From Mayamaea pseudoterrestris (Eukaryota): DNA of 64,000 nucleotides. Shown one piece after another: positions 4,476 to 44,613 of this stretch (the first letter of the stretch is position 1; each line of letters begins with the position of its first letter). The stretch spans positions 186,001 to 250,000 of the forward strand of contig BROI01000028.1 of NCBI GenBank assembly GCA_027923505.1, in the 5' to 3' direction. Made by a program: the position numbers and the translations under genes. Below the pieces are notes generated by a model that saw only the letters and a list, made by a program, of their open reading frames with translations, was not told the origin of the DNA and searched no databases.

Positions 4476-5714
4476 CTAAAATATGACATCACATGCACTG
4501 CGAACGATAAAGTAGATCTGAGATTTAGATTTTTGACGTCGCGCCATAATCACAAGCGTCCGGATCGCCGCCCGACGCAAAAGAGGATTCGTGATCTTCA
4601 GTACTTCCTCCATTCGAAGAGGCACCATTTTGTTAAGTTGCAAGCAACGCACAATCTGACATATCCATGTACGTGGGTGTTTACAATTTTTCGGAAGCTG
4701 CACATCCTGCAAGAAGGGGCTCGATTTGACCAAGTCGGCAATCAGTTGCGAATACACATACGGTTCTTGTAGAGCGTCGAGGGTTCGGATCAGAGGATCA
4801 AACCCGATCTTCTGCATGGTAGGATGCGCTTTCATCAATGGGCAGAGCGCTTCCCAAAATGTGAGTAAATCAAACCAAGCACCACTTAGACGTAGCGTCG
4901 TCAGCCGTAGCCTGTGCAAAACATTCGCGAGGGATGTAGCGTTGCGGACGCATAAAGCCTTTAGCGCATCGCGTGTTTCCCCAGCGTATGGGAATCCTTG
5001 GCTTGTATGGATCCGGAGTGATGTTACTTGAGAAGCTTCATTCAGCGACCAAATGCAATCGTCATTATTACTATATATATTAATATATAAATGCAGTGTG
5101 TTCAAAGTCACCGGAAAAGTACCATTTACCTGGACATGAACCAAGCAAAGATTTGGAATCAACGACGCACCCAAAGCATCAAAATGACCCTTATCAAGAC
5201 AGAGATAGGAAATGCTGAGCGTCGTCAAAGAGTCATTTGGCTCTACAAAAGTCGCCAACGCAGCTGAGGAAAATGGAAAGCGAGAACTACCAGCATTCTT
5301 TCCGTCAAATTCCACCGACTTGATTCGAAGGGCTCTTAAAATATGCAGGAGATTGTCGAGTGGTAAGGTATCCATGGGTTGCAAGCCGTCGTTTTGAACC
5401 ATGTAGACGCCAATCTTAAGGTCCTGATGAAAATGTCCGTCATGAGAGGTGACGTGCAACAAAAAGGTGAATTCGTCATGTCGCCGCAATTTACGCGCGA
5501 TAGGACCTCGCGAGTCGATGAGGAAAAGGTGCCGAGATAGCCAGACAATTCTAGTCCGCCCGTATTCCGCGAAGATACGAATATTACTGCCTTGAAAGGC
5601 AGCATGTATGAGCTCAGGTCTCACTAGCTCGACTTCGGAGCACCCGCGAAAGTCTTCTCCAAGGCCGTTCTCGGGAGTCCCCAAGCGGTGAATGGCGGCA
5701 AAACACGACTCCAT
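4476..5714 (-). CDS. Hypothetical protein, possibly degenerate RNI-like/LRR (LxxLxL repeats)
   Basis: 412-aa ATG ORF with LTTLSIS, LNTLHLY, VTSLRIH and LTTLRLS repeats. Confidence 0.55.
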   Translation of the reverse strand: MESCFAAIHRLGTPENGLGEDFRGCSEVELVRPELIHAAFQGSNIRIFAEYGRTRIVWLSRHLFLIDSRGPIARKLRRHDEFTFLLHVTSHDGHFHQDLKIGVYMVQNDGLQPMDTLPLDNLLHILRALRIKSVEFDGKNAGSSRFPFSSAALATFVEPNDSLTTLSISYLCLDKGHFDALGASLIPNLCLVHVQVNGTFPVTLNTLHLYINIYSNNDDCIWSLNEASQVTSLRIHTSQGFPYAGETRDALKALCVRNATSLANVLHRLRLTTLRLSGAWFDLLTFWEALCPLMKAHPTMQKIGFDPLIRTLDALQEPYVYSQLIADLVKSSPFLQDVQLPKNCKHPRTWICQIVRCLQLNKMVPLRMEEVLKITNPLLRRAAIRTLVIMARRQKSKSQIYFIVRSACDVIF

Positions 5715-6005
5715 TAGTTTTACTTGCTTCTACTAGTGCTGTCGCGTAGATCTGTATCAATTCACTTGCAGGATATGATAGCAGCGTGGGCTTTCTCGCT
5801 GCTGGCTTTTTGAAAAACCATGGCGATGAGTGTGAGCGTATTATGTCGCAGTGTGACAATAGCGCGAATGAATGCGAGTCTTAATTGCGCGCCAGTCGTC
5901 GGAACGATGCGCGCATCACCATGGCGGAGCAAAAATCGTAGCCGTTCCATTCCGTCTTTTCACAGCAACTGCCTACCCTGATACATTCAGCAGCAATTTG
6001 TAATA

Positions 6006-9000: not shown

Positions 9001-12000
9001 TAGGCAGTTTAAGCGCTACGGTGGTAGCAGACAAGCTCAGAGATCTTTCAAAGGAGGATTGGACGAACCCGCTGGCTTTGACTGCTAACAAAATGCCAGT
9101 TGGGTTTGTTTCCGCGTACGCGGATAAGTTTCTGCCGCGGCTACAAGAGAAGTACCCGCTAGAGTCACCTGCTGCATTGCTTGGTCGTCTTGTGAAGATG
9201 TGGCATGTGCACGAGACGGCCTGCAATAATGTTTGCGAATGTGACGCCAATATGGCGATGGAGAGTCCGAGCAAATTCGTCGCAACGGTCGACGCTTTGC
9301 AAAGCGTCATCCCACGAAAACGCAAGGTTTATGAAGTAGAACCTTCCAGCACGCTGCTCTCCAGCGGAAAAGACACTAAAAAGGCGGAAGCTCTTGCGAC
9401 GACTGGTGGTTTGGTTGCCAATAACTCGGAGTATGAAGTTGATTTTCGTGCTTCCGATCCACTGGGCTTCTTTTGTGTCTCCTACGAGAACCATATTCAC
9501 GAGTCAGCATGCAAAATTGCCTCTGTAGCTCCGAATGGCCAAGCTCGCTCGCTTGATACTAGGATCCAAGGCGGAACGATTATTATGAGCGCCTCGAATG
9601 AGGGCAACATGGAGCGCGTATCAACTCTAGCACATTTGCAAGAGCTGTATGAACGCGCCCATCGCAACAAGGGTTCGTTGCGTTTGTCGCTTAGTAACAA
9701 GGACGTCACCACTCTTACTATGGCTCAAGCAGAAGACCTCAAGTCGCATTGGTCAAGCGGCGGTAAATGGAAAGACACTACTTTAAAAGGCTGGGCGGGA
9801 GAAAGTCCGCGTCTGCTAGAATATGCCCCTGTTGTTCATCCAGACAGGCTCGCAGAATCGGCGGTACAAGTACTGCCTACTGCCGCAAGGACGGACATAC
9901 CGGTAGACGCACCTGATGCGCGTGCAAGATCAAAATGGATCATGTTTGAATCCACAAGAAATGTTGTGGGTCATTGTCAAGCACCGCCTATATTGAAACA
10001 ACGAACGTCAGCGGGGGAGAAATACGGTACGAAGCGCGTAAGGTTCCCTGCTAATGTAATAAAGGAGTACCGCGTGTATCTCACAGATCGGGCACCAAAC
10101 ATATTTTGGATTGAAAACTCATCAGGAAGTGCTGGGAAAGCCACTACGCAAGCACCATCGAAGGAGGATCTTTTGCAAGCTTTACAATTACAAGGATTTA
10201 AAGAAACGATTACACTTTTGCAGCGAGGCGCGGCCGCAGACATCGAGTCACCAGATGCGCTGACGATACTCTTGAAAGATGTTATAAATCCTTCACTAGT
10301 AAATACTGCCGCTCAATTGAAAATAAACCCGAATGATAAGACTCTTGCCAACATCCATCGAGATCTCTTCATCAAGAAGCAGCTCTTGAAGATTTGCGAG
10401 CGTCAGATACTAGCCGTAAAGAAAGTTAAAGCACTCAAGAAATGGGCTATGATTGAGCTCCAAATACTCTCGATTCATGATCTAAGCTTGAATTCCGTAG
10501 CTGAGAGTGGCAGCCAGTTGGTCCTTGCTGTTTTGAACCGCCACGATGAACCGCCGATTGCGAAGCTGCCAATGATGCCATTTGCAAGTTGCGTGAAGTA
10601 TACGGAATCGCCAATCTACGAAACCCGAGTCAATGTATTGTTAGAATCGCGACAATGGGATATCCATGTGAGTCAGCGCTACTCAAACGGCGTTCAAGTA
10701 CTTCTGGGCTCCGTAAGTGTATCTGCAAAATTCCTCGAAGAATTTTTTCAGGGGAAAAACAAAGCTGGCGACGGCGAAGAAGATTGGCAGACAGTAGATT
10801 GCGACATTGTACCAACTAGCACCAGTAAACTTATTGGCGGACGCATGCTTATAAAGTTTCGAAAAGTGGACATCGACGCCAAAGTTTTCGAGAAAAAGAG
10901 GAAGGAAGCAATTCAAGCAATAAAATTAATGTTTGACTGGATGAAGCAATTCAATATTAAAGAGTTGCACGATTCGGAAAGGGAAATGTATAGTTTGAGC
11001 GTGAACATGCGTATTAGTCAGCAACCACTTCTGGACACAGCCATTCAATTGGAAGAACCCGAGCTAATCCGGCAGGCGATGGACTTAGGCGCTGTTGCTT
11101 CAACGTCAGCACTCTTACTGGCTGAAAAATTAGAAGAAAACTTGTCGAGTTGTGAACGATCCGATAGTAATTCTACTAGCACTTTCACCAACGAGCGGCG
11201 CGCACGTATAAAGCAAATAATAAATCTGCTGGGCAACCTAGAGAGCGAGACATTGCAGGAGGTTTTGGACGTCACCGATCCACCCACTTCGACGTCCCCA
11301 TCCCCAGATCGCGTCATGCTCGAGGCGTCGCCGGAGACGGATGCAAAGATTGTGAAAGTACAAGCTCAACCGGAACAAGATGCTGGTCCACATAGAAAAA
11401 CTGAACTTTCAAAGCTACCTGTGCCGGACATGGAAAGACCTAAAGCACCGGCAAGACAATGGAACTCATTGCCATTAGTCGCGGCGTCTTGCAGACAGAA
11501 GGAAACGTCTGAATTATCTGATTTGAACCTGGAAAGACCACAACCACGGGAACGATCACCCACCCAATTGTCAGCGGAGACAGGTTTTCGCAGAGAGCCA
11601 GAAGCGTCGGAACGCCCTGAACTCGATTTGGATTGGCCGCAACAACGGGAACAATCACCCTCAACCTTGGCATCGCGCAAAGAGGTTGATACGCCGGTGC
11701 TACCTGGATTAGACTTGGAACGGTGGATCCTTTCCCGAGACCGCAAGCATGCATGCTGCTCTCACCAATACCGTGGAGGCTGTCGGAGTGCACGCACCAA
11801 TTGTCGCTTTATCCATATTAACTCACTCTGGGGCCCAGCTAATTTTGAATCGCTCTGGTCTTCCAGCAAATCGTCATTCACGGCAGAAGTGGAACGTCTT
11901 GTTGATCGACATGCCACTTATCGAACATGGGAGGCAGGCAATGGGACAGAGTGGTTCACAGCCAAGTATTCGTCCGTTGCGACTGGCGAGAACAGCAGGC

Positions 12001-12209
12001 ATGCAACGGATCAACACGTCATTTTAGCTGAAGGACAACCTTGCCAACCTTCATGGCAAGGTATCTGCTGGTACCGATCAAAGGAGGAAGCCAGAAGGGC
12101 CCTTGAAAAGACGGTGCACATCACCTTTTATGCATATCAGATTAATAAATTTTCGGCGTTGGGAGGACCGGCCAAGCTGCTGCAAGAGATTTTTAAGAAT
12201 TGTAATTAA
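6006..12209 (+). CDS. Large multidomain protein: 2 helicase-associated (HA) domains, PDZ-like segments, possible C2-like and CCCH-like regions
   Basis: 2067-aa ORF. HA signatures WETMFQRF..LAAWIVQQR..LSKERIRQLE and WLDMFHALVAYKEKHG..LSFWLQTQRRLY. PDZ-like G..SGLRVGD and PLGFF..IASVAPNGQA. C-terminal C-x7-C-x6-C-x3-H. Confidence 0.75.
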   Translation: MDRKPPADATIEPQRKKPRRVGVIALEDIKTVIPASQLPWNNRDIEPVGGLRIPSQGIALPFDIDESDPILQNAISETAGATETAASANPERTDAASRVAATNIGLTDGTASSSGDKSQLPTDKTSDQNSINAHDNSQWSDEIYETFPITIAAKGSLSGTLGLYDATPDMIKRFKCHSNQNICKVTGMTPDGIGTASGLRVGDFFVKRIDAATVALEDYESVFDRLKSAERPLTLLIARLRSQSSKELASTVSAQPQAAAGDASTTNALESAPIEAPSQETLAQPTTKEQTAAASSGKDESDELNTSSTRSERTAVAACDKPSLPSGDNSAPSAKGVEDLEWETMFQRFCKVGEGTTELKAGIETDQALAAWIVQQRSLSEHGNGQLSKERIRQLESNGLAFGRPAVSGPDSSSGATSEPCDTVVADKRLIVMNNAPPTVTKRSMQVPTPRSTGVVANQDKGAPTADWLDMFHALVAYKEKHGTFVVPNNVVHCGKNLSFWLQTQRRLYKNKFRNTKPFLSQQKIDLFRSISLDLDPLGRLSNQDNVPGGTNANTEPPSVNLGSERVELELTRASRNAEKMTTRVLSQESENDSVTAASGRPALADSGPETESARQTQGHFSAHEPPSASIAVMNDVVVNDRLSHGLPVTAGDVLPTTPVCEAAERAHKERCLLESRVMSWLDRRICAAEESAYMDEQNVDITLAEKNERRTAFVQENFLKDNVSSPISQSDCLQFASEERKYLEEVSLEIEQAAAIANNMYTQMTLTDTANTATDTRLEVRNNQLKCHSPTNIAKKQFKMKAFLPSFQVLNGMNKPLWTFDDIDKIARSVEAAPNMKLQGALTVKECKDDDSTICLELIGSKEVSEQIMSAIGNVLGRRCRAHEKCGAVIGVDSLVTDIDWTNKDLRLGNPAFVKETYKAPPSLNIVAADRSREAPLKGVSPKVVSYTHFAKKVKDAIDIEWKQSKIASTFVSGRMWARHKRMFGFLCDDACKCVFSLGSLSATVVADKLRDLSKEDWTNPLALTANKMPVGFVSAYADKFLPRLQEKYPLESPAALLGRLVKMWHVHETACNNVCECDANMAMESPSKFVATVDALQSVIPRKRKVYEVEPSSTLLSSGKDTKKAEALATTGGLVANNSEYEVDFRASDPLGFFCVSYENHIHESACKIASVAPNGQARSLDTRIQGGTIIMSASNEGNMERVSTLAHLQELYERAHRNKGSLRLSLSNKDVTTLTMAQAEDLKSHWSSGGKWKDTTLKGWAGESPRLLEYAPVVHPDRLAESAVQVLPTAARTDIPVDAPDARARSKWIMFESTRNVVGHCQAPPILKQRTSAGEKYGTKRVRFPANVIKEYRVYLTDRAPNIFWIENSSGSAGKATTQAPSKEDLLQALQLQGFKETITLLQRGAAADIESPDALTILLKDVINPSLVNTAAQLKINPNDKTLANIHRDLFIKKQLLKICERQILAVKKVKALKKWAMIELQILSIHDLSLNSVAESGSQLVLAVLNRHDEPPIAKLPMMPFASCVKYTESPIYETRVNVLLESRQWDIHVSQRYSNGVQVLLGSVSVSAKFLEEFFQGKNKAGDGEEDWQTVDCDIVPTSTSKLIGGRMLIKFRKVDIDAKVFEKKRKEAIQAIKLMFDWMKQFNIKELHDSEREMYSLSVNMRISQQPLLDTAIQLEEPELIRQAMDLGAVASTSALLLAEKLEENLSSCERSDSNSTSTFTNERRARIKQIINLLGNLESETLQEVLDVTDPPTSTSPSPDRVMLEASPETDAKIVKVQAQPEQDAGPHRKTELSKLPVPDMERPKAPARQWNSLPLVAASCRQKETSELSDLNLERPQPRERSPTQLSAETGFRREPEASERPELDLDWPQQREQSPSTLASRKEVDTPVLPGLDLERWILSRDRKHACCSHQYRGGCRSARTNCRFIHINSLWGPANFESLWSSSKSSFTAEVERLVDRHATYRTWEAGNGTEWFTAKYSSVATGENSRHATDQHVILAEGQPCQPSWQGICWYRSKEEARRALEKTVHITFYAYQINKFSALGGPAKLLQEIFKNCN

Positions 12210-32344: not shown

Positions 32345-33063
32345 TATAAAAGACCTGTGAAGGCGTAGCTTTTCTGGATGGGATGGGTAAGGGGCAATGG
32401 CCAGTAATGGGAGTAAGGGGCCTGCTGGAGAAGACTCAGTTTCCGTAGGATTGTTTCGCTCCTACGCAAAAGCACCGCCGCTCAAAATCCCTCGCTTCGT
32501 TTCAACGGTATGACTATAATGGGCAAATTGCAGTGTCTTTGTTTCGAGATGCATCAATATAGTCGCAGTAAAGCGAACGATCAACATGCCGCCCAAGCGA
32601 GGTTCTTGGAAGTTTGGGAGTGTTGAAGCGCGGAGATGTTATCGAAGGGCTTTATTTAAAATGAAGTCAAAGTTCTAAAGTGACTCATATTGAAGTTGAA
32701 CTTACGAAATGCATTAAGTAAATTTAGAAACTAACCAATAATGACGTGCATTGACATGCAGATCAGAACCGAAATGAAATGAAATATGAAACTTCAATAT
32801 CTGGCGTCTGATTATGTGAGTTGGTCGCCCAAAAAAAGGACGAGATGCGCTTCCTTGGCGTTCAAACCACGAGTCAAGTCCTCCCCGACGACGCCAGTAA
32901 GCGACTGAAGTCTACCGGTAGCAGGGATAACTATGTTCGATTAGCCTACGTCAAAGAAACAAAAGAAATATATGAATTGCTATGGTAGGAGTCGGCATGC
33001 TTCTCTCGTATGTCTCTGGCCAAGCATGGCTGCAGTGATTCAGGAAACACAGAGCACTCGTCC

Positions 33064-34231
33064 CTACCCCTGCTCCGGCCAAGCCGTATCTAGAACATGC
33101 AGCAACAAATCTCGGAAATTGCCTTTCACTTCAGATCGGACGCGATCGTGAACAGTTTTGCCATAAAGCTCAATATGAGCTGCCATGACATCTCCCATGA
33201 CCTCCTGCAAGCGAATGAGCGTGCACGTCAATAAGAGTTCATCCGTCCCAATGCCCTTGCATGCCGTCTTGATCAAGTTAGCCATGGCCTCGTACGGCTT
33301 AAGTTTCATCTCAATCAAGTGCACCGTTGCGTCTGCCAGGTTACCGTTAAGCTCCTTGGCCATTGCCTTGGCCAAAGTGTAGCCATACTTCTCCGAGTAG
33401 GCCCGGTCAATCGCCTGCAAGTGTTCCTTGAGCGACTTGGTCAAGATTTTAAATATTCCACGCTCCTCCGTACCCCATTTGCCTTGGCCCTTTTGATAAA
33501 TTTCCTCCGCATCTTCAATTGCCTTCTCCTTGGTGTGATGCTGCGGATCAAATGGATCTTGACCACCTTGAAGGGCACTAAAGACGAGAACCTCCATGTT
33601 ACCAGTGAGCTCGCTCGCTAGTACCTTGCCCTGTAATAAAGTCCGACAATCATGAGACACGAGTAAATCGCGCAGTATATTGCCAAAGATCAAAACTTAC
33701 GAGGTCTTTGCTGTACATGTCATAGTACCTGTTCAAAGAAATGATGAAATAAGTAGTATGAGCAGCAGTTAACGCAAACTGCTACAACACAATCATGACA
33801 CATGCAGCGAGCAAACCAACTCACGTCTTTTTCAAGAGCTCCAGCTCCTCATTCGTCCGTCCAACAAGAACGCTCCAAACAATATTAACATTGGCTCCAA
33901 CGCCCGCCGTGGCCTTGCGAATCATTTTGCATTCGGCCTTGTGCAAAGGCAAGGCGAGAAATCGCAACGCCAGTCCAAAGTTTCCACTAAATTCCTTCTT
34001 CATCAATTCCTCCAAATCTTGTTTATGAAGCTCCTTGTAGCGAATGTACAATTTGTATCGATCCGTCGCGTTGTGCTTCGCCAAGGCGTCGACAACCTTT
34101 TGCTTGTTGGCGCCCCATCCTTTGGTGGCATCGTGAATTTGCTGGCAGCAGTCGTCAATCTCTGGTCCGAATCCGTGATCAGGACTGAGATCTTGGCGCA
34201 TGACCATTTCGGGGTAGAGAGGAATCGGCAT
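33064..34231 (-). CDS. Annexin; exons 34231-33825, 33728-33701 (28 nt) and 33630-33064
   Basis: Four annexin repeats (KGWGAN, AGVGAN, GKWGTE, KGIGTDE). GT-AG introns restore the frame. Confidence 0.9.
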
Positions 34232-34782
34232 GATACAGTCGTTGTGGATGCCAAACTAGTGATTGTAATTAAGAACGAGTCGAGAGTCCAGAGCTTTGTG
34301 TTAGCGCTAATCGTCGGCGATGAGGCAAGGAGCTGAGGTTGATTGATATATCCAACGATTGGCTTATCGTCAAGCAGTCCGCTTGGAAGATCTTATGCTT
34401 TGGTTGTAATGGCAAAAAGCAACGACCCTGCTCAAGGGTCAACGGGTCAATGATCTCGAAACAAGATCCAGATCCACGAATTTCTATTTCCGTGTCGCAC
34501 TGTTTCCACTTTTGTATCGCACTGGTGTTGAACGATCGTCATGCAAATCTGGCGCGGCAGCCAAACGAAGGAACGGCAAACGCCTTGCGCTGCCTTTGGT
34601 ATTCATCACTTTGTTTCAAGTACAAATCGGTTGCTACATTGCGTTTGTGTGCATAGTAGGCAAACACCGTATCTTGCATATAGTGCGATTAAGTAACCAG
34701 TCTAAGGAGTGATTTAGCAGAAGCTAAGCGATTCCTCTGCGCATCCAAAAGTCCTTCTCCATTGGCACTTTCTGAGGGCATC

Positions 34783-37700
34783 ATGACATCGAACGCTGAT
34801 GCTGATGCCGACAAGGATCTTGATGCACCAACTATCCCATCCACCATGCAAGATCTTTTTGAGCAAGTGGTGGGTTGGATACGTGATACGCCAGTCACCG
34901 CAAACATGCAGCCATCCACCGACACCAAGCTCCGCATGTACGGCCTCTACAAGCACGTTCACGACGGTCCCTGCGTTGGCGAACAGCCTTCCGTGTTGCG
35001 CGTCGAGGCGCTCTACAAGTACAAGGCCTACAGGGCGTGCGAAATGTTGAAAAAGGAGGAAGCCATGGAGCAGTACGTTCAAGTGGCTGGTGCGCAAAAC
35101 AATTGGCTCGGGCATAAGATTTTAACGCACTATCAGTCTTGGTGCGCGGCGCACGGCAAGTATGCCACGTCGGCTGTCATACCAATCGCTTCAGACTCGA
35201 ATTCAATTGCAACCAAAATGCTCTCATTGCTTGGGATTCGTCCACTAGTGCCGCGGGGTCAACTCGATATATCCGTTTCCGACTTGCTCTTTGCCATTTC
35301 GTCGTGCTGTTCCCTCTCTGGGTCGTTGCGCTCCAAGGAGCAAGCCGTTCAAGACTTGTTCGCAAGCAGCAGCAGTGATACGCACCACGCAGTGGTGGGC
35401 TTGTCGGCTCGAACATTGATGGATCTATACTTTTGCGCCAAAAAGTATCCAAAGGGATCGCAACTCATCATGAGTCCGGCAATCAACGTTCCTGGTGTCG
35501 TCGCCGTGTTGAAGCACCACGACTTGGAGATTGTGGCGATTGACCTTCCAATGGACGCCAACGGACAAACGCGCATTTCTGTTGACTGCGATGCGATTGA
35601 AAGCGCCGTCACGGCCAAGACGGTGGCAATCATGGTGGTGCATCCGTTTGGCATGCCGTCGGCGAGCGACAAGGAAATGAGTCGACTGCGGAAACTCGCA
35701 AATGAGCAGAATCTAAGCTTGATGGAGGATTGTGCCGAATGCTTTACGGGATTATCAAAAGATGCCTTTCAGCCGAGCACTCTGGCCGACGTTAATTTTT
35801 ATTCGTTTGGATGGATCAAGACGGCAACCGCTCTTGGAGGTGGCGTGGCTCTCGTGAGCGATGACAAGATCGCAAAAGACATGAACAGGATACAGCATTC
35901 ATCATATCCGCTACAATCTACATGGGTCATTTTATGGAGAACTGTGAAGGGATTGTGGATCCATCTCATGACTGCATCGCCCGTTTTGTTCGCGCTGTTT
36001 GCATATGCTCTTAACTTGGTTGGCCTTGACCTGGACGCCGCCGTGTACGCAGTGATTCGAGGATTCTCGTCGCCGTCTCCCGCCGAAAGGCTACGTCAGA
36101 TACGCCAACGGCCATGCGCTGCCTTGCTATCCATGCTGAACAGACGGTTAAAGCAATCGCGCAACAATGTCGTTCCGTCTGTGGAAGCGAGGAAACGACG
36201 TTGCGAAACGGTTTTAAAATCATTGCGTACCAGCAATCCTGACACTGTCGGTCATCTGGATGACAGTTCAACCTTTTGGTTGTTTCCTATAATATCTAAG
36301 AATCCAAAACGCTTTTGTCAGGCGCTTCGGAAAAATGGATACGATGTGACGAGGGGCATGTCCCAGTTAAAGTGTGTGGATGACGGCCAGTCATGTCCTC
36401 GAGCGTCAGAATTGATGCAAAGTGCCGTATATTTACCCATTTCCAGTCGCAGCATGAGCGATTCGCAGCTTTGTCGTCTGACAGAATTGATACAAGCAGC
36501 AGAACCCGAAACGTCGAAGCCTCCGCTCAAAGCGTACAACACTTGGAGAGTCAGCTGGAAAACTGCTGTATTCGTCGGCGCAATGCTGGTGATGCTGTCA
36601 TCCCTACGATATACAATGCTCTTCTTTATAAATGTCTTCATACTGCTCGGCCTTCTTGCACTTGCAACTTCTGTGATACTCCGATGGAGCGTTTCTGATT
36701 GGTACCTAGACCATTCATCTAATTTTGTCAAGTATAGCCACTTGCTGACGGGTCATGACGAGCGCAAGTCGGACATTTCCAGTCGAAATGTGTTGAAAGC
36801 GATGGATGTGCTTAAAGTCCCAGCTAACTCATTGGGCGAAACGAGAAAAGTGTTTCTTACCGGATCGACTGGCTTTGTCGGGTCCAACTTACTACGCAAT
36901 CTTTTGCTGAATCGCAAGGAACTCTTGATCGAGTCCGTCACTCTCCTGTGTAGGTCAAAGCGTGGCCAATCGGCGAGGTCACGGGTAGACAAGCTCTTGA
37001 GTGAGCCTCAATTTTCCTTTTTGTCTGACGACGAGAAACTGTCGGCTGTTCAAGTTGTTGAAGGAGAAGTGTCAACGCCTAATGTCGGGTTGAGCGAGAC
37101 GGATTACAATGCAATAATAGAAGACTCAAAGTTTACCCACGTCATTCACTGTGCCGCCTCGGTCAGCTTTACTCAAGAGCTTCCCGATGCCGCACGGACG
37201 AATATCGCTTCTTCACTGCATCTTCAGAAGTTGACCGCTATGATAACGTCGGGCTCTGCTATTTTTGTCCACGTAAGCACTGCTTTTGTCCACGGCGGTG
37301 ATACCGGAACCGCGGCCGAGCCCTTGCCTGAAAAGCTTTACTCGCTCGGAAAGTACGACCCAGCGCGACTTTACTCCTCTATGCTTGGATCCCAATTTTA
37401 CGCTGCAAAGGCAATGCATGAACTCGGTTTTCACAATTCATATACTTTTAGCAAGTGCGTTTGCGAGCATCTACTATCAAGAAATTCTTGTGTACGAACA
37501 ATCATCATTCGACCTAGTATTGTTGGACCGGCCGTTGAATTGCCTTGGGAGGGATGGGCTGGTGCGAAGCCTTCCACGATTGTTGCTGCTGCTTGCTTAT
37601 ATATGGCCTACCAATGGAATCTCTGGTCGTTTGGCAATCACAGAGTTCCTTGCATTCCTGTCGACATTTTAAGTTCGTTCATTGTTGCCAAAGTTTTTGC

Positions 37701-40700
37701 AGTGGAACACATTGAGGACGCGTCGGAAATTCTTGTACCGTCGAGCGCGGATAGCGATTCGGCTAGATCTAGCGCAATCAGCTTCGAAAAGATAAAGCGA
37801 GCTGATAGCACTGCGTCGTCATCAAGTGACTCTTGGCCTGATTCAGCCGCGTCTCAGCATTCCCTTGATATATACAATGCAGCCTGGAATGGTGCATCGC
37901 CCGAGTCGTCGTCTTTTACATGGATTGACTACGCTGCGGCAATATGTCAAGTTGGTGCTATCACCGGCTATTTCTCCAGACCAACTGCCTTCGTCAGTCT
38001 GGGCTTTGCAAAAAGGATTGTTCCCTGGGCATCATTTTCTATAAATTCCTTCCGTCGGCTTCATGCTCTTGTTGTTGATATACCTTTCAATACGATAAAA
38101 AAGATGGGAAACTTTTTTGGATATGATACGTCGCTCATGAAAAAGTTGCACCCGTTTCTGGAGTTGCCACTTCTCTTCTATCCGTTTATGAATTCCAAAT
38201 TTTATTTTGATTCTGACTTGACGGCGCCAGTCGAATTAAATGGGCAGCGATACATGTTTAGCTGCACTGCCGCGGCTCATCGTTTTATGGTCAATGACAG
38301 AAACAATACGTCGGAAAACTCTGCGAAACCATTTCTAGGTTCAACCGACAAGATTTATTCCTGCCGGATAGCGGGCTCACTTCATCAGCAAACCTGTCCC
38401 GATGCTTGGTGGGCCTTGACGCAGCCCGAAGGCGGCTACTTTACGCGATTTGCAGGATGGATAATAGTCAAGATTTTAAGAGCCACTTGCACCGAAGTAA
38501 CAGTTGATGTGGATTCGTTTCGATCAATAATCACGCATTTGGAAAACGAAGCAGAGCCAATGACGGTCATACTCGCTCCGACGCATCGGTCCTTCATGGA
38601 TTTCATAGTCTTAAGTTATGCTCTATTTGCTCTCCCTGAATTAAAGGTGAAAATCCCTCACATCGCTGCCGCGGACGACTTTGAGAGACTCCCTTACATC
38701 GGGTGGCTGGCGACACGCTTAGGGGCCTTTTTTGTTCGAAGAGGGAGAAAGCATAAAGACCCAAAGTTGCGGGATAACCTGTCGTCAATTACGAATTCGG
38801 CTACGCATCATAGCCCTTTCATAGAGGTTTTTATCGAAGGGACAAGAAGTAGAGACCGACGATTTCATCGTCCGAAAACTGGTTTCTTGCGCTGCATTCA
38901 GAATCAAGGCCCGATTGTGGTAGCTCCAATTACCATCAATTACGAGCGTGTTCCTGACCAGCATGCCTTGGCTGCTGAGGCGACAGGAGGACTAAACAAG
39001 GGTTTGAACGTGTTTTCTCTAATCAACTGGCTTCGTCGAGTATCGGGTGGAAAAGTGCGTCTGGGGCGCATTCATATTGCCGCGTGCCAGCCTATTTCTG
39101 CTACGGACGGTAGCAACCAGCTTGATGCGCGCATTTTAGCCGATATGATTCAGTGCAGACAACAAGAGCAAGTTTGTATATCGGACTATCATATCAAAGC
39201 CGCATCCAGCTTGCTAAAATTAAAAGTTGAGACTGTGGAGGATGCAATGCGACGTGTGGACTGCAAATTCTGGCCTAAGACAAATGCTGGATCGTCGCTG
39301 CTAGACGTTCCTACTGACGAAACTGAGCTTCTGACTGTCTTACTACAAGCAAGTCCAACTCTGTCCAAGCTCTTTGTCGAGTCGCATCCAAATTGGTCAA
39401 ATTGGCTGAACCGTTTGAACGAAACAACTTTAGACGAATCACTGCGCGGAGTGGACTCGGTGCGTCAAATTATTGACAGCTTAGTGCCCATGTTCGACGA
39501 GGCCGATCGATGTACCGGAGAGGCTCTACGAATATTAACGGAAAAAGGCTTTTCGAACCCGAAACCTGAGCATGCTTTGCAGAAAACGCTGACATTTAGC
39601 AACAAGTTGCCTCATGGACTCATCCGAGCTTCATTGGCAATGAAATTACATGGGTCTTTGGTCACGTACGATGAGACCATGCCTTATTTCAGCGACGGAG
39701 CAGTAGCGAAACAAAGAATACCAAACTCGGACGAATCGCTTGGCTTCTGGGGCTTTCACGATTCATCTTTTGTCGTGCAAACGGATAGCCAAGGTTCCCC
39801 GTTCGTAACCATGCAAGGCAAACGATACACTCTTAGCAACGCTCGTATGAGGAAGATACTGCCGTTTATACAGGAGGAGATGAATGTCAAGGTAGATCTT
39901 TTCCGTGAAGCGTTTCTTGACAATGAAAAGATTGCATTTCCTGGCTGCTGCATCGTCGCGGAAGACCTTGAGCTCCTAAAACCAACCTGTTTGTCGGTTA
40001 CATATGAAGAAAGAGTTCGTCATGGAACCGGTCATTGCCAAGAGGACGTGTTCGCAATCCGCAGCGGCCACTTACCTCGTATTCCGGATCTTGTTGTATG
40101 GCCAAAAACTCAGGCGGAAGTCCAAAGCATTGTTCGCCTTGCCAAGGAAAAGTCTTGGTGCCTTATACCGTTCGGCGGAGGAACAAACGTTTCGCTTGCG
40201 ACTCGTTGTCCATCCCTTGAAGTTGAACCTCGTCCTATTGTGTCCGTCGACATGAGAAAAATGTCCAAGATACTCTGGGTCGACGAAGAGAATGGCCTAG
40301 CTCGCGTTGAGGCCGGTATTACTGGGCGTCATTTGGTGGAGCAAATGGCACAGCGGGGGTATACAATTGGGCACGAACCGGATAGTATTGAATTCAGCAC
40401 TCTTGGTGGTTGGGTTGCTACAAAAGCCAGCGGTATGAAGCGTAACAAGTACGGCAACATTGAAGATATCGTCAAGGCTGTTCGTGTGATTGGCCCGAAC
40501 GGTGTCTTGCAACATGGCAGTGATGGAGAAGTTGTCTGGGGACGTGAAGCAAGCGGCATGGATCTTTGCTCGGTCATGTTTGGATCAGAAGGGTGTCTCG
40601 GAATTATAACGAGCGCCACGCTACGAATTTGGCCAGAGCCTGAAGTGAAAGACTACGATGGCTTCATCTTTCCAGACTTTGAAATGGGTGTTCGCTTCGC

Positions 40701-41490
40701 TCGGGGCGTTTCCAAGCTCGGGACTCGAATGCCTGCCTCGGTGCGCGTGCTCGACAACGAGCACTTTCGACTGGGACAGGCTCTTCGTCCAGCTTCCAGA
40801 TCGCCGTTTGAGACCATTTTAAAGCCAATATTGCAGTCGCTACTGCACAAGTTCGGTAATTTTGAATCAAAGAAAGTCACTTGTGCTACCATTGGATATG
40901 AAGGCTCGAGGAACGAAGTTCGATTGCAACAGACGTCTCTCGCCAAGCTGGCAAAGGAGCACGGTGGCATTCGTCTTGGAAGTCAGGTTGGCAAGGACGG
41001 TTACAATTTGACGTTTATGATTGCATACCTTCGAGACTTTGCCATGACTTACCACTTTCTTGGCGAGTCATTCGAAACGTTTGTGCCGTGGTCCAACGTT
41101 CAGCAAGTCGTGGAGCGTACCAAAGCTCGCATTTTTAAGGAGCATGCCGATCGATGTCTTCCAGGCAAGCCTTTTGTCGGCGCCCGCGTGACACAGCTTT
41201 ACCACGAAGGCGCTTGCATATACTTTTACTTTTGCATGAACTTTGAGAATGTGCCTGATCCCAGCCACGTTTATTCTGAAATTGAGCACGCGGCTCGTCG
41301 TGAAATCATGGACAATGGTGGATCTGTCAGCCACCATCATGGAATAGGCAAGGTCCGCGCCGAGTATCTCAAGGAAATCAATTCTTCAGCCTTTATGGAT
41401 AGTCTGCAAATGTTTAAAAAAGGCGTTGATCCATTGAACATATTCGGGGCGCGCAATAGTGCATTTGCGACCGACAAGCCCGAGGAGTAA
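34783..41490 (+). CDS. Ether-lipid multienzyme: ACBP - DegT-type PLP aminotransferase - TM - fatty acyl-CoA reductase - DHAP acyltransferase (GNPAT-like) - alkyl-DHAP synthase (AGPS)
   Basis: One uninterrupted ORF. ACBP: LRMYGLYK..GPC. DegT: VVHPFG, EDCAE, SFGWIKTATALGGG. FAR: TGSTGFVG, HCAASVSF, YTFSK, IRPSIV. Acyltransferase: HRSFMD, GAFFVRR, FIEGTRSR. AGPS: PFGGGT, GHEPDS.EFSTLGGW, GSEGCLG, CIYFYF, SHHHGIG. Confidence 0.92.
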   Translation: MTSNADADADKDLDAPTIPSTMQDLFEQVVGWIRDTPVTANMQPSTDTKLRMYGLYKHVHDGPCVGEQPSVLRVEALYKYKAYRACEMLKKEEAMEQYVQVAGAQNNWLGHKILTHYQSWCAAHGKYATSAVIPIASDSNSIATKMLSLLGIRPLVPRGQLDISVSDLLFAISSCCSLSGSLRSKEQAVQDLFASSSSDTHHAVVGLSARTLMDLYFCAKKYPKGSQLIMSPAINVPGVVAVLKHHDLEIVAIDLPMDANGQTRISVDCDAIESAVTAKTVAIMVVHPFGMPSASDKEMSRLRKLANEQNLSLMEDCAECFTGLSKDAFQPSTLADVNFYSFGWIKTATALGGGVALVSDDKIAKDMNRIQHSSYPLQSTWVILWRTVKGLWIHLMTASPVLFALFAYALNLVGLDLDAAVYAVIRGFSSPSPAERLRQIRQRPCAALLSMLNRRLKQSRNNVVPSVEARKRRCETVLKSLRTSNPDTVGHLDDSSTFWLFPIISKNPKRFCQALRKNGYDVTRGMSQLKCVDDGQSCPRASELMQSAVYLPISSRSMSDSQLCRLTELIQAAEPETSKPPLKAYNTWRVSWKTAVFVGAMLVMLSSLRYTMLFFINVFILLGLLALATSVILRWSVSDWYLDHSSNFVKYSHLLTGHDERKSDISSRNVLKAMDVLKVPANSLGETRKVFLTGSTGFVGSNLLRNLLLNRKELLIESVTLLCRSKRGQSARSRVDKLLSEPQFSFLSDDEKLSAVQVVEGEVSTPNVGLSETDYNAIIEDSKFTHVIHCAASVSFTQELPDAARTNIASSLHLQKLTAMITSGSAIFVHVSTAFVHGGDTGTAAEPLPEKLYSLGKYDPARLYSSMLGSQFYAAKAMHELGFHNSYTFSKCVCEHLLSRNSCVRTIIIRPSIVGPAVELPWEGWAGAKPSTIVAAACLYMAYQWNLWSFGNHRVPCIPVDILSSFIVAKVFAVEHIEDASEILVPSSADSDSARSSAISFEKIKRADSTASSSSDSWPDSAASQHSLDIYNAAWNGASPESSSFTWIDYAAAICQVGAITGYFSRPTAFVSLGFAKRIVPWASFSINSFRRLHALVVDIPFNTIKKMGNFFGYDTSLMKKLHPFLELPLLFYPFMNSKFYFDSDLTAPVELNGQRYMFSCTAAAHRFMVNDRNNTSENSAKPFLGSTDKIYSCRIAGSLHQQTCPDAWWALTQPEGGYFTRFAGWIIVKILRATCTEVTVDVDSFRSIITHLENEAEPMTVILAPTHRSFMDFIVLSYALFALPELKVKIPHIAAADDFERLPYIGWLATRLGAFFVRRGRKHKDPKLRDNLSSITNSATHHSPFIEVFIEGTRSRDRRFHRPKTGFLRCIQNQGPIVVAPITINYERVPDQHALAAEATGGLNKGLNVFSLINWLRRVSGGKVRLGRIHIAACQPISATDGSNQLDARILADMIQCRQQEQVCISDYHIKAASSLLKLKVETVEDAMRRVDCKFWPKTNAGSSLLDVPTDETELLTVLLQASPTLSKLFVESHPNWSNWLNRLNETTLDESLRGVDSVRQIIDSLVPMFDEADRCTGEALRILTEKGFSNPKPEHALQKTLTFSNKLPHGLIRASLAMKLHGSLVTYDETMPYFSDGAVAKQRIPNSDESLGFWGFHDSSFVVQTDSQGSPFVTMQGKRYTLSNARMRKILPFIQEEMNVKVDLFREAFLDNEKIAFPGCCIVAEDLELLKPTCLSVTYEERVRHGTGHCQEDVFAIRSGHLPRIPDLVVWPKTQAEVQSIVRLAKEKSWCLIPFGGGTNVSLATRCPSLEVEPRPIVSVDMRKMSKILWVDEENGLARVEAGITGRHLVEQMAQRGYTIGHEPDSIEFSTLGGWVATKASGMKRNKYGNIEDIVKAVRVIGPNGVLQHGSDGEVVWGREASGMDLCSVMFGSEGCLGIITSATLRIWPEPEVKDYDGFIFPDFEMGVRFARGVSKLGTRMPASVRVLDNEHFRLGQALRPASRSPFETILKPILQSLLHKFGNFESKKVTCATIGYEGSRNEVRLQQTSLAKLAKEHGGIRLGSQVGKDGYNLTFMIAYLRDFAMTYHFLGESFETFVPWSNVQQVVERTKARIFKEHADRCLPGKPFVGARVTQLYHEGACIYFYFCMNFENVPDPSHVYSEIEHAARREIMDNGGSVSHHHGIGKVRAEYLKEINSSAFMDSLQMFKKGVDPLNIFGARNSAFATDKPEE

Positions 41491-41636
41491 GGTGCAGCAA
41501 CTATGCGTATCATCGCGTATACTGTCAAGTAATAAAGATGATACGGCTTAGAGAATATAAAAACAAATTATGATGTTGTAAATGTACTCTTTACTGGAGA
41601 AAAAGGTAGGCTCAGACCAACTAATAAGCTCTTCCA

Positions 41637-42674
41637 CTAGCCTGAATCTGTGACATCGAATACAGAGCCGAGGCTGCACGGCAAAATCTGCGTCGTCGAT
41701 GGTGGAGCGTCTGACTCTGCTGCATGCCCGTGTGTCTCGTCCAAAGTGCCGCTAGATATGTTGGTAGTTTGCTCCAAGGTTGGCTGATAATCGGATCCGG
41801 CATTGTTGAAAATGTCATCGTCCGAGTCGTCGGCAATGTCAACCGCCAGTGCCTTTGTTCGGTCCTTCTCACGCTCATGTTTTACAAGAGGCTTCCATAA
41901 CGCATCTTTGATTGACTGCAGCAAGCTCGGAGTCACTGGACTCGCCTTTAGTACAACGCCAGTGTCGTCTGCATCCGTATGAAACGTCGCCAGTGTGCGT
42001 TCCATTGGAACGAGCCACGCGCGCGATCGGTTGCGAGGATCCGGCATGTCCGCCGCAAACTCCAAAATTGTCCGCTGCACAAGTCTACCAGCGTTGGTTG
42101 GAGTTGCTGCTGCGGCTGTCATGGTTGGCGCTGGCTGCAGCTTGGATTTGCAGTAGGCGAGCAAGTCGCGGCCCAGGTCGGTTTGCGCTTGAATTTGATC
42201 GTTTAAAATTAAAAACTCTGCTTCCTCCTTTGTATTTGGTACATGTGACAAGTTTTCTTGCGTTTGATGCTCTCGAACATGTTGCCGCTTCTTCAATCCA
42301 TGTGTCCACGCCTGTTCGAGATCGTCGTCGAGCGTCGGTGCGTCCTTCTCGTAGTGTCGCAAGTCATTGTCTCTTGTCAATTCGTCAGTTTTGCCTTCTC
42401 GTCGTTCCTTGGCACGGTCCCGATATGTAGATGCATTTTCTTGTTCCGATGTCATGTCTTTGTCTTCCTCCTGGTCGCCATCGCGTTGGCGCTGCTTCTT
42501 GCGTCGCTTGTCGCTCGCTTCCTCGTCGGAAGATCCATCTTCGTTATTACCGCCATGCCGCTGCTGCCGCTTGTTCTTTCGCTTAAAGTCGGACTCGACT
42601 GCTTGGCGAGCAAACTCCCTCGTCGAAGCAGTCGCTCGATGGCGCACGAGGGATGCAAAGGCGTCGTTGTTCAT
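41637..42674 (-). CDS. RED/IK-like spliceosomal protein (RED_N-like)
   Basis: The MNNDAF..L start and YRDRAKERREG motif are typical of RED N-termini. It is shorter than canonical RED. Confidence 0.6.
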   Translation of the reverse strand: MNNDAFASLVRHRATASTREFARQAVESDFKRKNKRQQRHGGNNEDGSSDEEASDKRRKKQRQRDGDQEEDKDMTSEQENASTYRDRAKERREGKTDELTRDNDLRHYEKDAPTLDDDLEQAWTHGLKKRQHVREHQTQENLSHVPNTKEEAEFLILNDQIQAQTDLGRDLLAYCKSKLQPAPTMTAAAATPTNAGRLVQRTILEFAADMPDPRNRSRAWLVPMERTLATFHTDADDTGVVLKASPVTPSLLQSIKDALWKPLVKHEREKDRTKALAVDIADDSDDDIFNNAGSDYQPTLEQTTNISSGTLDETHGHAAESDAPPSTTQILPCSLGSVFDVTDSG

Positions 42675-42906
42675 GATGAAAATGTGCGAAAGGGGATGCA
42701 CGAGAAACGCGATAGACGAACGTCGCACCGTTATTTCCCCGGTGTTGCGATGCGACATTCTTTTGCACGATTGATGAACCAACGACGAGGGCGGTCGTCG
42801 CTCACATGGATAAGTGCTGCTACCGGGGTTTCATACTAATGTAACGATAGCCATCACCTTAAGCTGTAATCGTTACTACACTTCTTATTCGTTGATCAAT
42901 GATATT

Positions 42907-44613
42907 ATGAGACCTGACACGAGCTGCATTGCCGTCAGCAAGACGGCGCGAGACGCGCTGCAGGCGAAGTGGTCGGCCGTTTCCGTCGGCAAGTACAACG
43001 TGGCATCCACAAACCATGACCAACAAGTATACCATCAAATGATTCATGCCATGGCGCATCACGCTAAAGCAACGAGGCCGCAGACTCCATTGGTGAATGC
43101 GGGATACGCCATGCGAGTCACTGTCATGCTCCACAACATGCAAAGTTACTTGCGATTTCATCGCGCCTTGAGCGGCTCGCTCCAACATGTGCAGATTGTC
43201 ATACTTGGCGCGGGCTTGGACGTTGCTGGCTTTTGGGCATTGTCGCAGCTGGAACATGATGATGATCAGGTGCATTTAGTGGAAATTGACGTGCACTCGG
43301 TGTGGCAGGCGAAGCGTGACGCAGTGACGTCGCTCAATTGGGTGGTTCCTTCCAACGAAGCAGACAACGCTCACGTTTGGCACGGCGTGCCGCAGGTCGG
43401 AAAAGGCCAGTGTCGATACAGTCTTGTTCATGCTGACCTTCGTGACACGTCAAAGTTGCAGGAAACTCTCTCATTCTTGCAACTTGACAATCCGACGCTT
43501 GTTTGCGCGGAGCTCGTCCTGGCGTACCTTGGCGAGCAACGTTGCGACGACCTACTGCAATGGTGCTCCAGCAACCTTTGTCGACACCCCATGAGCTGTC
43601 TCATTGCCTTGGAACCGCTCGGTAGTCAGACGCAGGAGTCAGTCTTGAGTGGCTATCAGTACAACTACGTGTCGCAATTCACGGCGAAACTGAACCGAGG
43701 CCTAGCTGATAACGGATCACACAAGGGACCGCTGTTTGATCCGTTAGGTGCGAATCGCGCGTCTGTCATTAGAAGAATGCACGAGAACGGGTGGACAAGC
43801 TCTAGGATTCTGACATGTGGTGATGCAGCCGCGGAAGCGGTTCAGTTTGGAGCTGACTTGATCTGCCGCGAAGTGTTTGACGAACATGCGGCGCTCCATC
43901 TTCATCTTCAGTCCTACGTGATGGTGCTAGGATTCAAGCACGAGACGGAACACTTACTCCAGCGATACATGAATGCCAAGAATATAAACGAACGTCCACT
44001 TGGTCGCTTATTGAAGGATGGTTCAAGGATTTGGTTAACCGAAATTGAACGCCAGGATGAAGCGGAACTACGCAGCCAGTTCTCGTCAACTTATCAACGT
44101 TATTTTGATACATACCCAGCAATCAAAAAGATGGTAAAGACGGCGTTGAGAAAAGACCTTGCCTCATCGTCAGTCGATGGCGATGATACTTCCAAAATCC
44201 ACTTGCACTATCGCAGCATTGATGGACACTTTCTGGTTGCGGTACAGTATCCTCCAATGAGCAATATAAACTCAATGACTCGGATACTGATTGGAGGTAT
44301 TGGCTGGCGCAAATTGTCACCAAAGGAGCAAGCCGCCCGCGGATTCCAGTGGACTAGCTATGAAATTCATCGCCTCGTCGTGGCACCGCACTCGCGGCGC
44401 CTGGGCGTTGCTCGTTGCTTGTTGGAGCGCGCGGAATCGTTGATTCAACATGGCACTCCAGCCTATCAACTAATTGCGACTACACCTGTATTCCAAGTGG
44501 ATGCCACTGCATTCTATCGAGGCAATGGATTCATGCTCTTGTCGGAAGCTGAAATGGGAAACATCACGCTACAAACATACTCAAAAATTACTAACATAGA
44601 GCAAGGTAGCTAA
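42907..44613 (+). CDS. Leucine carboxyl methyltransferase-like domain fused to a C-terminal GNAT acetyltransferase
   Basis: LCM: TARDA..AK, PLVNAGYAMR, QIVILGAGLD, ADLRD, AELVLAYL, FDE. GNAT: EIHRLVVAPHSRRLGVA...ATAFYRGNGF. Confidence 0.82.
   Translation: MRPDTSCIAVSKTARDALQAKWSAVSVGKYNVASTNHDQQVYHQMIHAMAHHAKATRPQTPLVNAGYAMRVTVMLHNMQSYLRFHRALSGSLQHVQIVILGAGLDVAGFWALSQLEHDDDQVHLVEIDVHSVWQAKRDAVTSLNWVVPSNEADNAHVWHGVPQVGKGQCRYSLVHADLRDTSKLQETLSFLQLDNPTLVCAELVLAYLGEQRCDDLLQWCSSNLCRHPMSCLIALEPLGSQTQESVLSGYQYNYVSQFTAKLNRGLADNGSHKGPLFDPLGANRASVIRRMHENGWTSSRILTCGDAAAEAVQFGADLICREVFDEHAALHLHLQSYVMVLGFKHETEHLLQRYMNAKNINERPLGRLLKDGSRIWLTEIERQDEAELRSQFSSTYQRYFDTYPAIKKMVKTALRKDLASSSVDGDDTSKIHLHYRSIDGHFLVAVQYPPMSNINSMTRILIGGIGWRKLSPKEQAARGFQWTSYEIHRLVVAPHSRRLGVARCLLERAESLIQHGTPAYQLIATTPVFQVDATAFYRGNGFMLLSEAEMGNITLQTYSKITNIEQGS

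Follow-up and report, generated by a model that had tools for sequence, protein, structure and literature searches.

What would be made by a single polypeptide that carries an ACBP domain, a pyridoxal phosphate (PLP)-dependent aminotransferase, a FAR, a GNPAT-type acyltransferase and an AGPS? The question is raised by contig BROI01000028.1 of the diatom Mayamaea pseudoterrestris (assembly GCA_027923505.1), of which 64,000 nucleotides (positions 186,001 to 250,000) were analysed; this stretch is referred to as the window, and all positions are given in its numbering. On the plus strand of the window, one open reading frame (ORF) runs from an ATG at 34783 to a stop at 41490 and encodes all of these domains. 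Judging from the motifs and from their conservation, the encoded chain is probably a membrane-anchored enzyme that forms alkyl-dihydroxyacetone phosphate (alkyl-DHAP).

Domain architecture of the fusion protein

As the preliminary description of the locus had it, the 6.7-kb ORF is single and intronless. The ATG-to-stop frame is unbroken over 2235 codons, without in-frame stop or sign of an intron, and its G+C content is even (0.46–0.52); in the ORF listing, the same frame is open further 5' to a TTG at 34762. Pfam recognises six domains, each with a score higher than its gathering cut-off (Table 1), and the scans returned FAR, the GNPAT/PlsB-type acyltransferase and AGPS. Together with matches to solved structures in the PDB and an alignment of 32 full-length homologues, they bear out the five domains named initially, with motifs intact. 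All five look intact with respect to catalytic or ligand-binding residues, which are invariant or at least 90% conserved in the aligned sequences.

At the C-terminus, the AGPS domain matches guinea-pig AGPS (PDB code 4bby) over chain residues 94–656 with an E-value of 2e-144 in phmmer, and Dictyostelium AGPS (PDB code 2uuu) with 1e-81, whereas the next FAD-oxidase family, D-lactate dehydrogenase, reaches only 7e-21. In Pfam, the two halves of the domain are recognised separately, as FAD_binding_4 (E 1.4e-36) and FAD-oxidase_C (E 1.1e-26). In the full-length alignment with 4bby, Arg1988 corresponds to Arg419 and His2184–2186, the HHH motif expected at ~41330, to His615–617, while the tyrosine motif GACIYFYF is identical. 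From structure work on the guinea-pig enzyme, we take Arg419, the HHH loop 615–617 and the tyrosine to be catalytic, and the diatom counterparts are invariant or at least 90% conserved in the 32 homologues. By these measures, the C-terminal ~570 residues can be regarded as a true AGPS. In animals, AGPS occurs as a separate protein in the peroxisome matrix, whereas the diatom AGPS is a C-terminal fusion domain without a peroxisomal targeting signal (PTS).

The acyltransferase places its HxxxxD motif at 38584 (His1268 and Asp1273), as previously noted, and His1268, Arg1269, Ser1270 and Asp1273 are invariant in the 32 sequences, as are Glu1352, Gly1353, Arg1355, Ser1356 and Arg1357 of an EGxRSR motif. 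The PlsB model of NCBIfam scores 82 bits, below its cut-off, and the PDB match is to GPAT1 (8e4y, E 3e-13); a preference for DHAP as acceptor would be expected from the neighbouring domains. The FAR precedes the acyltransferase in the same ORF, which is the arrangement of FARAT proteins. Its GxxGxxG motif (~36860, Gly694–Gly700) and YxxxK motif (37441, Tyr887 and Lys891) lie where they had been described, and Thr693, Gly694, Thr696, Gly697, Gly700, Tyr887 and Lys891 are invariant. In the ACBP domain, which matches ACB domains in the PDB with E-values of 1e-9 to 4e-6, the invariant residues Tyr53, Lys57, Lys79 and Tyr98 are spaced 4/22/19, presumably the spacing of the four ligand residues of bovine ACBP. 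The two long segments on either side of the acyltransferase (residues 967–1253 and 1386–1653) contain invariant columns, and gave no Pfam match at E ≤ 5; neither did the C-terminal half of the aminotransferase.

The hydrophobic hairpin proposed at ~36560–36690 coincides with the highest hydropathy peak of the protein (residues ~594–636). In most of the 32 homologues, the stretch between the aminotransferase and the FAR contains two hydrophobic segments with a short polar turn between them, and in 31 of them at least one such segment; the position of the hairpin is conserved and its sequence is not. A Reticulon match at this position is weak (E 5.4e-4, 20.3 bits against a cut-off of 31.8). The hairpin probably holds both halves of the chain on the same, presumably cytosolic, face of the membrane. 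The peroxisomal setting of these steps, to which the preliminary description referred, does not appear to carry over: a location in the peroxisome lumen, as in animals, is unlikely, because none of the 32 homologues ends in a PTS1-like [SAC][KRH][LM] tripeptide, although a membrane-type signal might still direct the protein to the peroxisome. The Mayamaea protein ends in DKPEE, and its N-terminus is acidic and by eye without a signal peptide.

The chain would carry the committed part of ether-lipid synthesis. In the sequence of steps that we propose on the basis of known family chemistry, the ACBP domain would capture acyl-CoA, the FAR would reduce it to a fatty alcohol with NAD(P)H, the GNPAT-type domain would acylate DHAP to 1-acyl-DHAP, and AGPS would exchange the acyl group for the fatty alcohol to give 1-O-alkyl-DHAP, with the hairpin between the halves anchoring both to one membrane face. 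The activities, their order, the topology and the product are predicted from sequence, and substrate channelling along the chain, as suggested at the outset, may be envisaged. In the available portions of a recent survey, FAR, GNPAT-type acyltransferase and AGPS form the known ether-lipid set (PMC13012113).

Table 1. Domains of the fusion ORF, contig cover of the ORF, and other genes in the window
Feature	Position	Strand	Basis
ACBP, residues 24–101	34852..35085	+	PF00887, E 1.9e-16, 60.4 bits (cut-off 28.3)
DegT-type PLP aminotransferase, residues ~150–575	35230..36507	+	PF01041 at residues 200–373, E 1.2e-16; extent from bacterial alignment
Hydrophobic hairpin, putative membrane anchor, residues ~594–636	36562..36690	+	strongest Kyte-Doolittle peak, 2.55; followed by a conserved LRW motif
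FAR (NAD_binding_4), residues 692–966	36856..37680	+	PF07993, E 1.8e-41, profile positions 1–257 of 258
Conserved FAR–acyltransferase linker, residues 967–1253	37681..38541	+	invariant columns, e.g. W1047, P1129, F1132, Y1157
GNPAT/GPAT/PlsB-type acyltransferase, residues 1254–1385	38542..38937	+	PF01553, E 9.7e-21
Conserved acyltransferase–AGPS linker, residues 1386–1653	38938..39741	+	invariant columns
AGPS, residues 1654–2225	39742..41457	+	phmmer to 4bby; FAD_binding_4 at 1768–1911, FAD-oxidase_C at 1953–2222
RNA-like contig cover	34631..41496	+	X3/X4 depth falls before ~34631 and after ~41496; no joint in ORF
Annexin gene	33064-33823	-	PF00191, E 1e-22
Hybrid histidine kinase ORF, 638 residues	30428-32344	-	ETR1_N (E 5e-18), HisKA, HATPase_c, receiver
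2067-residue ORF	6006-12209	+	helicase-associated HA domain PF03457 (E 1e-18), the only recognisable domain
568-residue ORF	42907-44613	+	leucine carboxyl methyltransferase-like PF04072 (E 2e-13); weak GNAT acetyltransferase match

Conservation in diatoms and relation to known fusions

A search with the whole-length protein gave 59 matches, about 34 of which are full length (2188–2461 residues), with the same domains and 39–72% identity over 91–100% of the query. The named full-length homologues are all diatoms (Fistulifera solaris, Nitzschia inconspicua, Nitzschia sp. Nitz4, Seminavis robusta, Thalassiosira profunda and Cyclostephanos tholiformis), and among the named matches the fusion is diatom-wide, occurring in both pennate and centric forms. 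Two more full-length matches derive from transcripts: P0013, which MMETSP marks as complete, and P0034, a EukProt entry that goes back to an MMETSP transcriptome and has an organism name beginning with 'Thalas'. For the conservation alignment of 32 sequences, P0021, P0033 and P0035 were left out on account of a missing ACBP match or lower query coverage; the fusion architecture is kept in all 32.

About 20 shorter matches (1300–1800 residues) either end inside the acyltransferase, at position 1370 or ~1417 of P0001, or start in the middle of the protein. Among the latter, P0036, P0039, P0058, P0059, P0149 and P0151 run to the end of AGPS, and the first four of these bridge FAR, acyltransferase and AGPS. 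The shorter ACBP–DegT–FAR–acyltransferase matches were considered as split genes, and this was rejected. Because their ends fall inside the acyltransferase domain, they look like prokaryote-style gene calls that are truncated at introns.

Public databases already contain gene models of the homologues, with automatically assigned names of which 'alkyldihydroxyacetonephosphate synthase' is an example; as a sequence, the protein is therefore not new. What sets it apart is the six-part architecture, its conservation throughout diatoms, the absence of a matrix signal, and the conserved aminotransferase, the kinds of enzyme themselves being known. In agreement with the preliminary description, which knew of no account of such a chain, literature searches found no paper describing one with FAR, acyltransferase, AGPS, ACBP and aminotransferase.

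The precedent cited there for part of the chain, a fusion of FAR and acyltransferase, is well founded: a FARAT of 1,140 residues is described in Tetrahymena (PMC13012113). In its accessible portions, this 2026 survey lists FARAT in Amoebozoa, Discoba, Filasterea, some fungi and ciliates, with Tetrahymena thermophila, Dictyostelium and Myxococcus MXAN_1675 as examples, reports FARAT activities in the peroxisome, states that Ciliophora are the only group within Diaphoretickes to have the fusion, and proposes a loss of the pathway in Diaphoretickes (PMC13012113). As for FARAT, the diatom chain has its FAR N-terminal to the GNPAT-type domain, with the NAD(P)H motif of the one and the HxxxxD motif of the other preserved, and the presumed role in both cases is to supply both AGPS substrates. 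Unlike FARAT, the diatom chain adds AGPS, ACBP, a PLP aminotransferase and the hairpin, is with 2235 residues about twice as long as the Tetrahymena protein, and has no PTS1, in contrast to the FARAT activities placed in the peroxisome in the same portions of the survey. A search with residues 660–1640 gave 27 proteins, none of them named FARAT; unnamed FAR–acyltransferase proteins in it show 33–37% identity.

In the text of datasets S1–S15 of the survey (SI Appendix figures S1, S3 and S8 being outside the search), no diatom GNPAT or FAR was found (PMC13012113). Dataset S2, on GNPAT, has no stramenopile row; S4, on FAR, has one, Pythium, and no Ochrophyta; and S5, on AGPS, has four Ochrophyta mentions, including three short diatom models, from Fragilariopsis cylindrus (561 residues), Phaeodactylum tricornutum (554 residues) and Pseudo-nitzschia multiseries (564 residues). 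As given in S5, all three begin with MKG.RY, which aligns to Met1677 of the Mayamaea protein (39811–39813), downstream of the WGF.DS.F segment of the solved AGPS structures; Met1677 is invariant in the 32 full-length homologues. The common start may be an error of annotation at an intron that these genes share, or may reflect internal initiation that yields a free AGPS. Fistulifera solaris is absent from S5, though its 2220-residue protein is in EukProt, and as far as these datasets go, the fusion escaped the survey. The accessible text of a paper on Guillardia peroxisomes mentions only separate cryptophyte FAR and AGPS (PMC9244630). Conservation of the fusion in pennate and centric diatoms contradicts the restriction of FARAT to ciliates within Diaphoretickes, as worded in the available part of the survey, and bears on the pathway loss proposed there (PMC13012113).

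The aminotransferase domain and the predicted product

The DegT domain aligns end to end with free-standing bacterial proteins of ~400 residues (28–34% identity over ~90% of the length); Pfam covers only its first half. It shares with them the subfamily motifs SFGxIKTATALGGG, EDCAQ and IRQRP..ALLALL.RRL, and on this basis appears to belong to a bacterial DegT subfamily. The PLP lysine, Lys346 (35818–35820), pairs with the motif lysine (SF..K..ALG.GG) of the solved DegT enzymes 7n63 and 3frk. Asp316, the cofactor aspartate, is invariant in the 32 homologues together with Ser341, Phe342, Gly343 and Lys346. An AlphaFold model built with 30 sequences (pLDDT 90.4, pTM 0.91) suggests that the region forms a complete fold type I aminotransferase domain. 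Its best Foldseek neighbours are ArnB, HCAN_0200 (7n63) and perosamine synthase (probability 1.00, TM 0.6–0.8, 13–18% identity), and an ESM Atlas search with the domain gave bacterial DegT clusters only. An identification of 7n63 with Cj1437 of Campylobacter jejuni was considered and rejected, 7n63 being HCAN_0200, an aminotransferase of Helicobacter canadensis. The fold and the PLP-binding lysine and aspartate are common to the diatom domain and the DegT/DnrJ/EryC1/StrS sugar aminotransferases (ArnB, perosamine synthase, HCAN_0200 and WecE), whereas the diatom domain exceeds the solved enzymes in length by ~70 residues (436 vs ~365), its subfamily has motifs of its own, and the informative bacterial contexts are related to lipids or DHAP rather than to sugars.

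These contexts come from a pattern scan in which each prokaryotic species was represented by one genome, and which gave 439 loci of the DegT subfamily; gene neighbourhoods were examined in the best 80, from many phyla. In a verrucomicrobial locus (L070, Verrucomicrobiia), genes for a PlsC-type acyltransferase (5654–6277), AGPS (6274–8004) and DegT (8001–9182) follow in series, with the AGPS gene overlapping both neighbours by 4 nucleotides, so that acyltransferase, AGPS and DegT are encoded together, as they are on the diatom chain. The AGPS of this operon matches Dictyostelium AGPS 2uuu with E 3e-128, contains the HHH motif and shows 33% identity with the AGPS domain of the diatom chain; a strong FAR is encoded elsewhere in the genome. 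Three further loci, from Chloroflexia (L041), Rhodothermales (L028) and Thermomicrobiales (L025), have the order acyltransferase, DegT and a GlpD-type protein with DAO and DAO_C domains, and in a locus from Gemmatimonadetes (L057) DegT is followed by a GlpD-type dehydrogenase. GlpD-type glycerol-3-phosphate dehydrogenases or oxidases make DHAP. Sugar-pathway neighbours were not found at those of the best 80 loci that have an informative context. In an all-against-all clustering of 3067 ORFs from the 80 loci, no neighbour family occurred in more than 10 loci, overlapping frames aside. An AGPS search of 401 genomes from the phylum of L070 gave 35 matches at E ≤ 1e-50, with full-length AGPS-like proteins only in L070 itself (G001) and in G050; the other matches (~490 residues, 31–36% identity) are taken to be other FAD oxidases. 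A second context that recurs is a glutathione S-transferase (GST) gene directly upstream of DegT on the same strand, in 11 of the 80 loci, nine betaproteobacterial (L023, L026, L027, L029, L032, L035, L059, L014 and L049) and two cyanobacterial (L042 and L054).

The 32 diatom domains group together (support 100) in a quick maximum-likelihood tree with 121 DegT sequences, and their clade is sister to free-standing bivalve and rotifer proteins (94); next outward are a gammaproteobacterial protein (94) and then L070 with the long-branched L046, at a weak 80. The animal proteins annotated in the subfamily are P0099 of the bivalve Solemya velum, and P0130 and P0131 of the bdelloid rotifer Didymodactylos carnosus; they may be genuine genes of these animals, products of horizontal transfer, or contaminants.

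AGPS needs a C2 ketone and a fatty alcohol, and in animals a reductase then removes the C2 ketone. Because of the first requirement, an enzyme that removes this ketone would act after AGPS. Pfam scans found no reductase domain for the C2 ketone in the diatom chain, and DegT-family enzymes are known to aminate ketones flanked by hydroxylated or oxygenated carbons, not terminal aldehydes. We tentatively suggest that the DegT domain may aminate the C2 ketone of alkyl-DHAP or acyl-DHAP in place of alkyl-DHAP reductase, which would give a 2-amino (serinol-phosphate) precursor of ether lipids. The same chemistry on the C2 ketone of DHAP is described, in the accessible text, for Cj1437 of C. jejuni, a PLP enzyme that converts DHAP to (S)-serinol phosphate (PMC11800397). 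The aminotransferase is not a passenger, because Lys346 and Asp316 are invariant and because some bacterial operons combine its relatives with an acyltransferase plus AGPS or GlpD. The preliminary claim of an alkyl-ether product is borne out as regards the domains, and is weakened in that the end product may not be ordinary alkyl-DHAP. It is conceivable, and again only tentatively proposed, that diatoms and the scattered bacteria with acyltransferase–AGPS–DegT or acyltransferase–DegT–GlpD arrangements share an undescribed lipid backbone, 1-O-alkyl-2-amino-2-deoxyglycerol-3-phosphate, which is an alkyl-serinol phosphate; in diatoms, the single membrane-anchored polypeptide would make it from acyl-CoA and DHAP outside the lumen of the peroxisome.

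A number of observations weigh against the proposed route or its amination step. The FAR_C ('Sterile') domain is absent from the Pfam scans, including the scan of the linkers at E ≤ 5. The best solved relative of the acyltransferase is GPAT1, and DHAP and glycerol-3-phosphate as acceptors are not distinguishable from its sequence. The 554–564-residue AGPS models in S5, as given there, leave room for some diatoms to encode AGPS separately. Literature searches found no report of diatom ether lipids, no single contig spans the whole ORF, and RNA support for the fusion consists of contigs from one study whose run kind is not on record. As regards amination, the structural neighbours of the DegT domain belong without exception to the nucleotide-sugar enzymes. 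In the accessible account, Cj1437 acts on free DHAP for capsule decoration (PMC11800397), and it may not be a member of the DegT family. Most of the best 80 of the 439 DegT loci are heterogeneous and have no adjoining lipid gene, the acyltransferase–AGPS–DegT operon was met once among them, and, to judge from the DegT tree, the four loci with GlpD may go back to a single origin. The AGPS gene of G050 has no DegT within its 1.5-kb flanks.

These points leave some room for an ordinary ether-lipid starter, the main rival reading, in which alkyl-DHAP is reduced by a separate reductase, as in animals, and the DegT domain carries out unrelated PLP chemistry, such as the formation of a head-group amine (ethanolamine phosphate or serinol phosphate, for example) out of a soluble precursor, or has a structural or regulatory role only. 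The soluble substrates of all solved neighbours and the lack of lipid genes next to most bacterial relatives agree with it, as do the PLP enzymes of C. jejuni, whose products, (S)-serinol phosphate and, from serine phosphate, ethanolamine phosphate, are both soluble in the portions of the study available (PMC11800397). The invariance of Lys346 and Asp316 speaks against a dead domain, however, the fusion is retained in every aligned full-length sequence, and the operons with acyltransferase and AGPS or GlpD connect the subfamily with lipid steps that build on DHAP; we regard the ordinary starter as somewhat doubtful.

Amination of a different intermediate has also been considered. If the FAR released a fatty aldehyde, the DegT domain could convert it to a fatty amine, and the nitrogen-containing lipids would lack an aminated glycerol backbone. 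NAD_binding_4 includes aldehyde-forming thioester reductases, the Thioester-redct model of NCBIfam scores 69.7 bits (below its cut-off), and the ACBP domain lies directly upstream of the PLP domain. Set against this, the bacterial DegT operons contain GlpD or AGPS and no adjoining FAR, AGPS requires a fatty alcohol, and the preference of DegT enzymes for ketones does not fit a terminal aldehyde, which makes a fatty-amine product very improbable.

We give equally little credence to a chain with no part in ether-lipid synthesis, in which the acyltransferase would act on glycerol-3-phosphate and the AGPS-like domain would be some other FAD oxidase, with ester lipids or wax-type products as the outcome. 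The GPAT1 and PlsB matches of the acyltransferase and the lack of reports on diatom ether lipids in the literature searches would fit such an enzyme, but the AGPS match is ~120 orders of magnitude better than that to other FAD oxidases (2e-144 vs 7e-21), and the counterparts of Arg419, His615–617 and the tyrosine motif are kept. The combination with FAR and a GNPAT-type domain is, moreover, exactly the ether-lipid set of the survey in its available portions (PMC13012113). Finally, an artefact of mis-assembly or of read-through between adjacent genes, to which the short AGPS models of S5 with their start at the Met1677 counterpart and the lack of a spanning contig might point, is hardly credible in view of ~34 independent collinear full-length homologues, one complete transcript, the conserved columns in both linkers, the four partial matches that bridge FAR, acyltransferase and AGPS, and the tiling of the locus by contigs of two studies, joint-free within the domains bar one loose end described below.

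An alkyl-DHAP-forming chain of this kind predicts that a major group of marine primary producers makes alkyl ether lipids, which might be of an unusual amino type. To our knowledge, alkyl ether lipids are not commonly counted among the lipids of diatoms. Sedimentary biomarkers of the alkylglycerol type are usually credited to bacteria, a view of their origin that may be affected. With the aminotransferase and its operon partners in bacteria, the prediction becomes specific, in the form of an amino-ether lipid backbone, N-acylation of which would yield ceramide-like ether-amide lipids with resistance to base and to the phospholipases A1 and A2. As a single intronless ORF, the gene is also a compact part for engineering ether lipids in yeast or plants.

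Contig support and neighbouring genes

The 34783–41490 frame is a real nuclear diatom gene that encodes one polypeptide of 2235 residues. The region 33000–43500 is tiled by contigs of four public runs (X1–X4) from two studies with zero joints within the ORF, and the mis-assembly contemplated in the preliminary description is not seen. Contigs of X1–X3 fill 30 of the 30 bins of this region; X4 has one 15-letter loose end at 36218, and otherwise joints and loose ends are absent from the domains. X3 and X4, which belong to one study with no run kind on record, are RNA-like by inference only from a neighbouring gene: the joints 33629/33700 and 33726/33823 (CT..AC) in the annexin gene are spliced in contigs of X3 and X4 and not in those of X1 and X2. 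The depth profile of X3 and X4 (Table 1) is a weak hint of one unspliced transcript unit over the ORF, contigs being unable to define transcript ends.

Compared with the contigs, the region 33000–43500 has ~300 listed sites of single-base difference over 10.5 kb, and many contigs are 95–99% alike. Such dense differences fit two diverged haplotypes or strains, which would fragment the contigs.

The genes next to the fusion ORF are ordinary nuclear genes and not related to lipids (Table 1). The annexin gene has two short introns, 33630–33699 and 33727–33822 (GT..AG on the minus strand). Beyond it lies the hybrid histidine kinase, which is of the plant ethylene-receptor type, here in a diatom-like genome.

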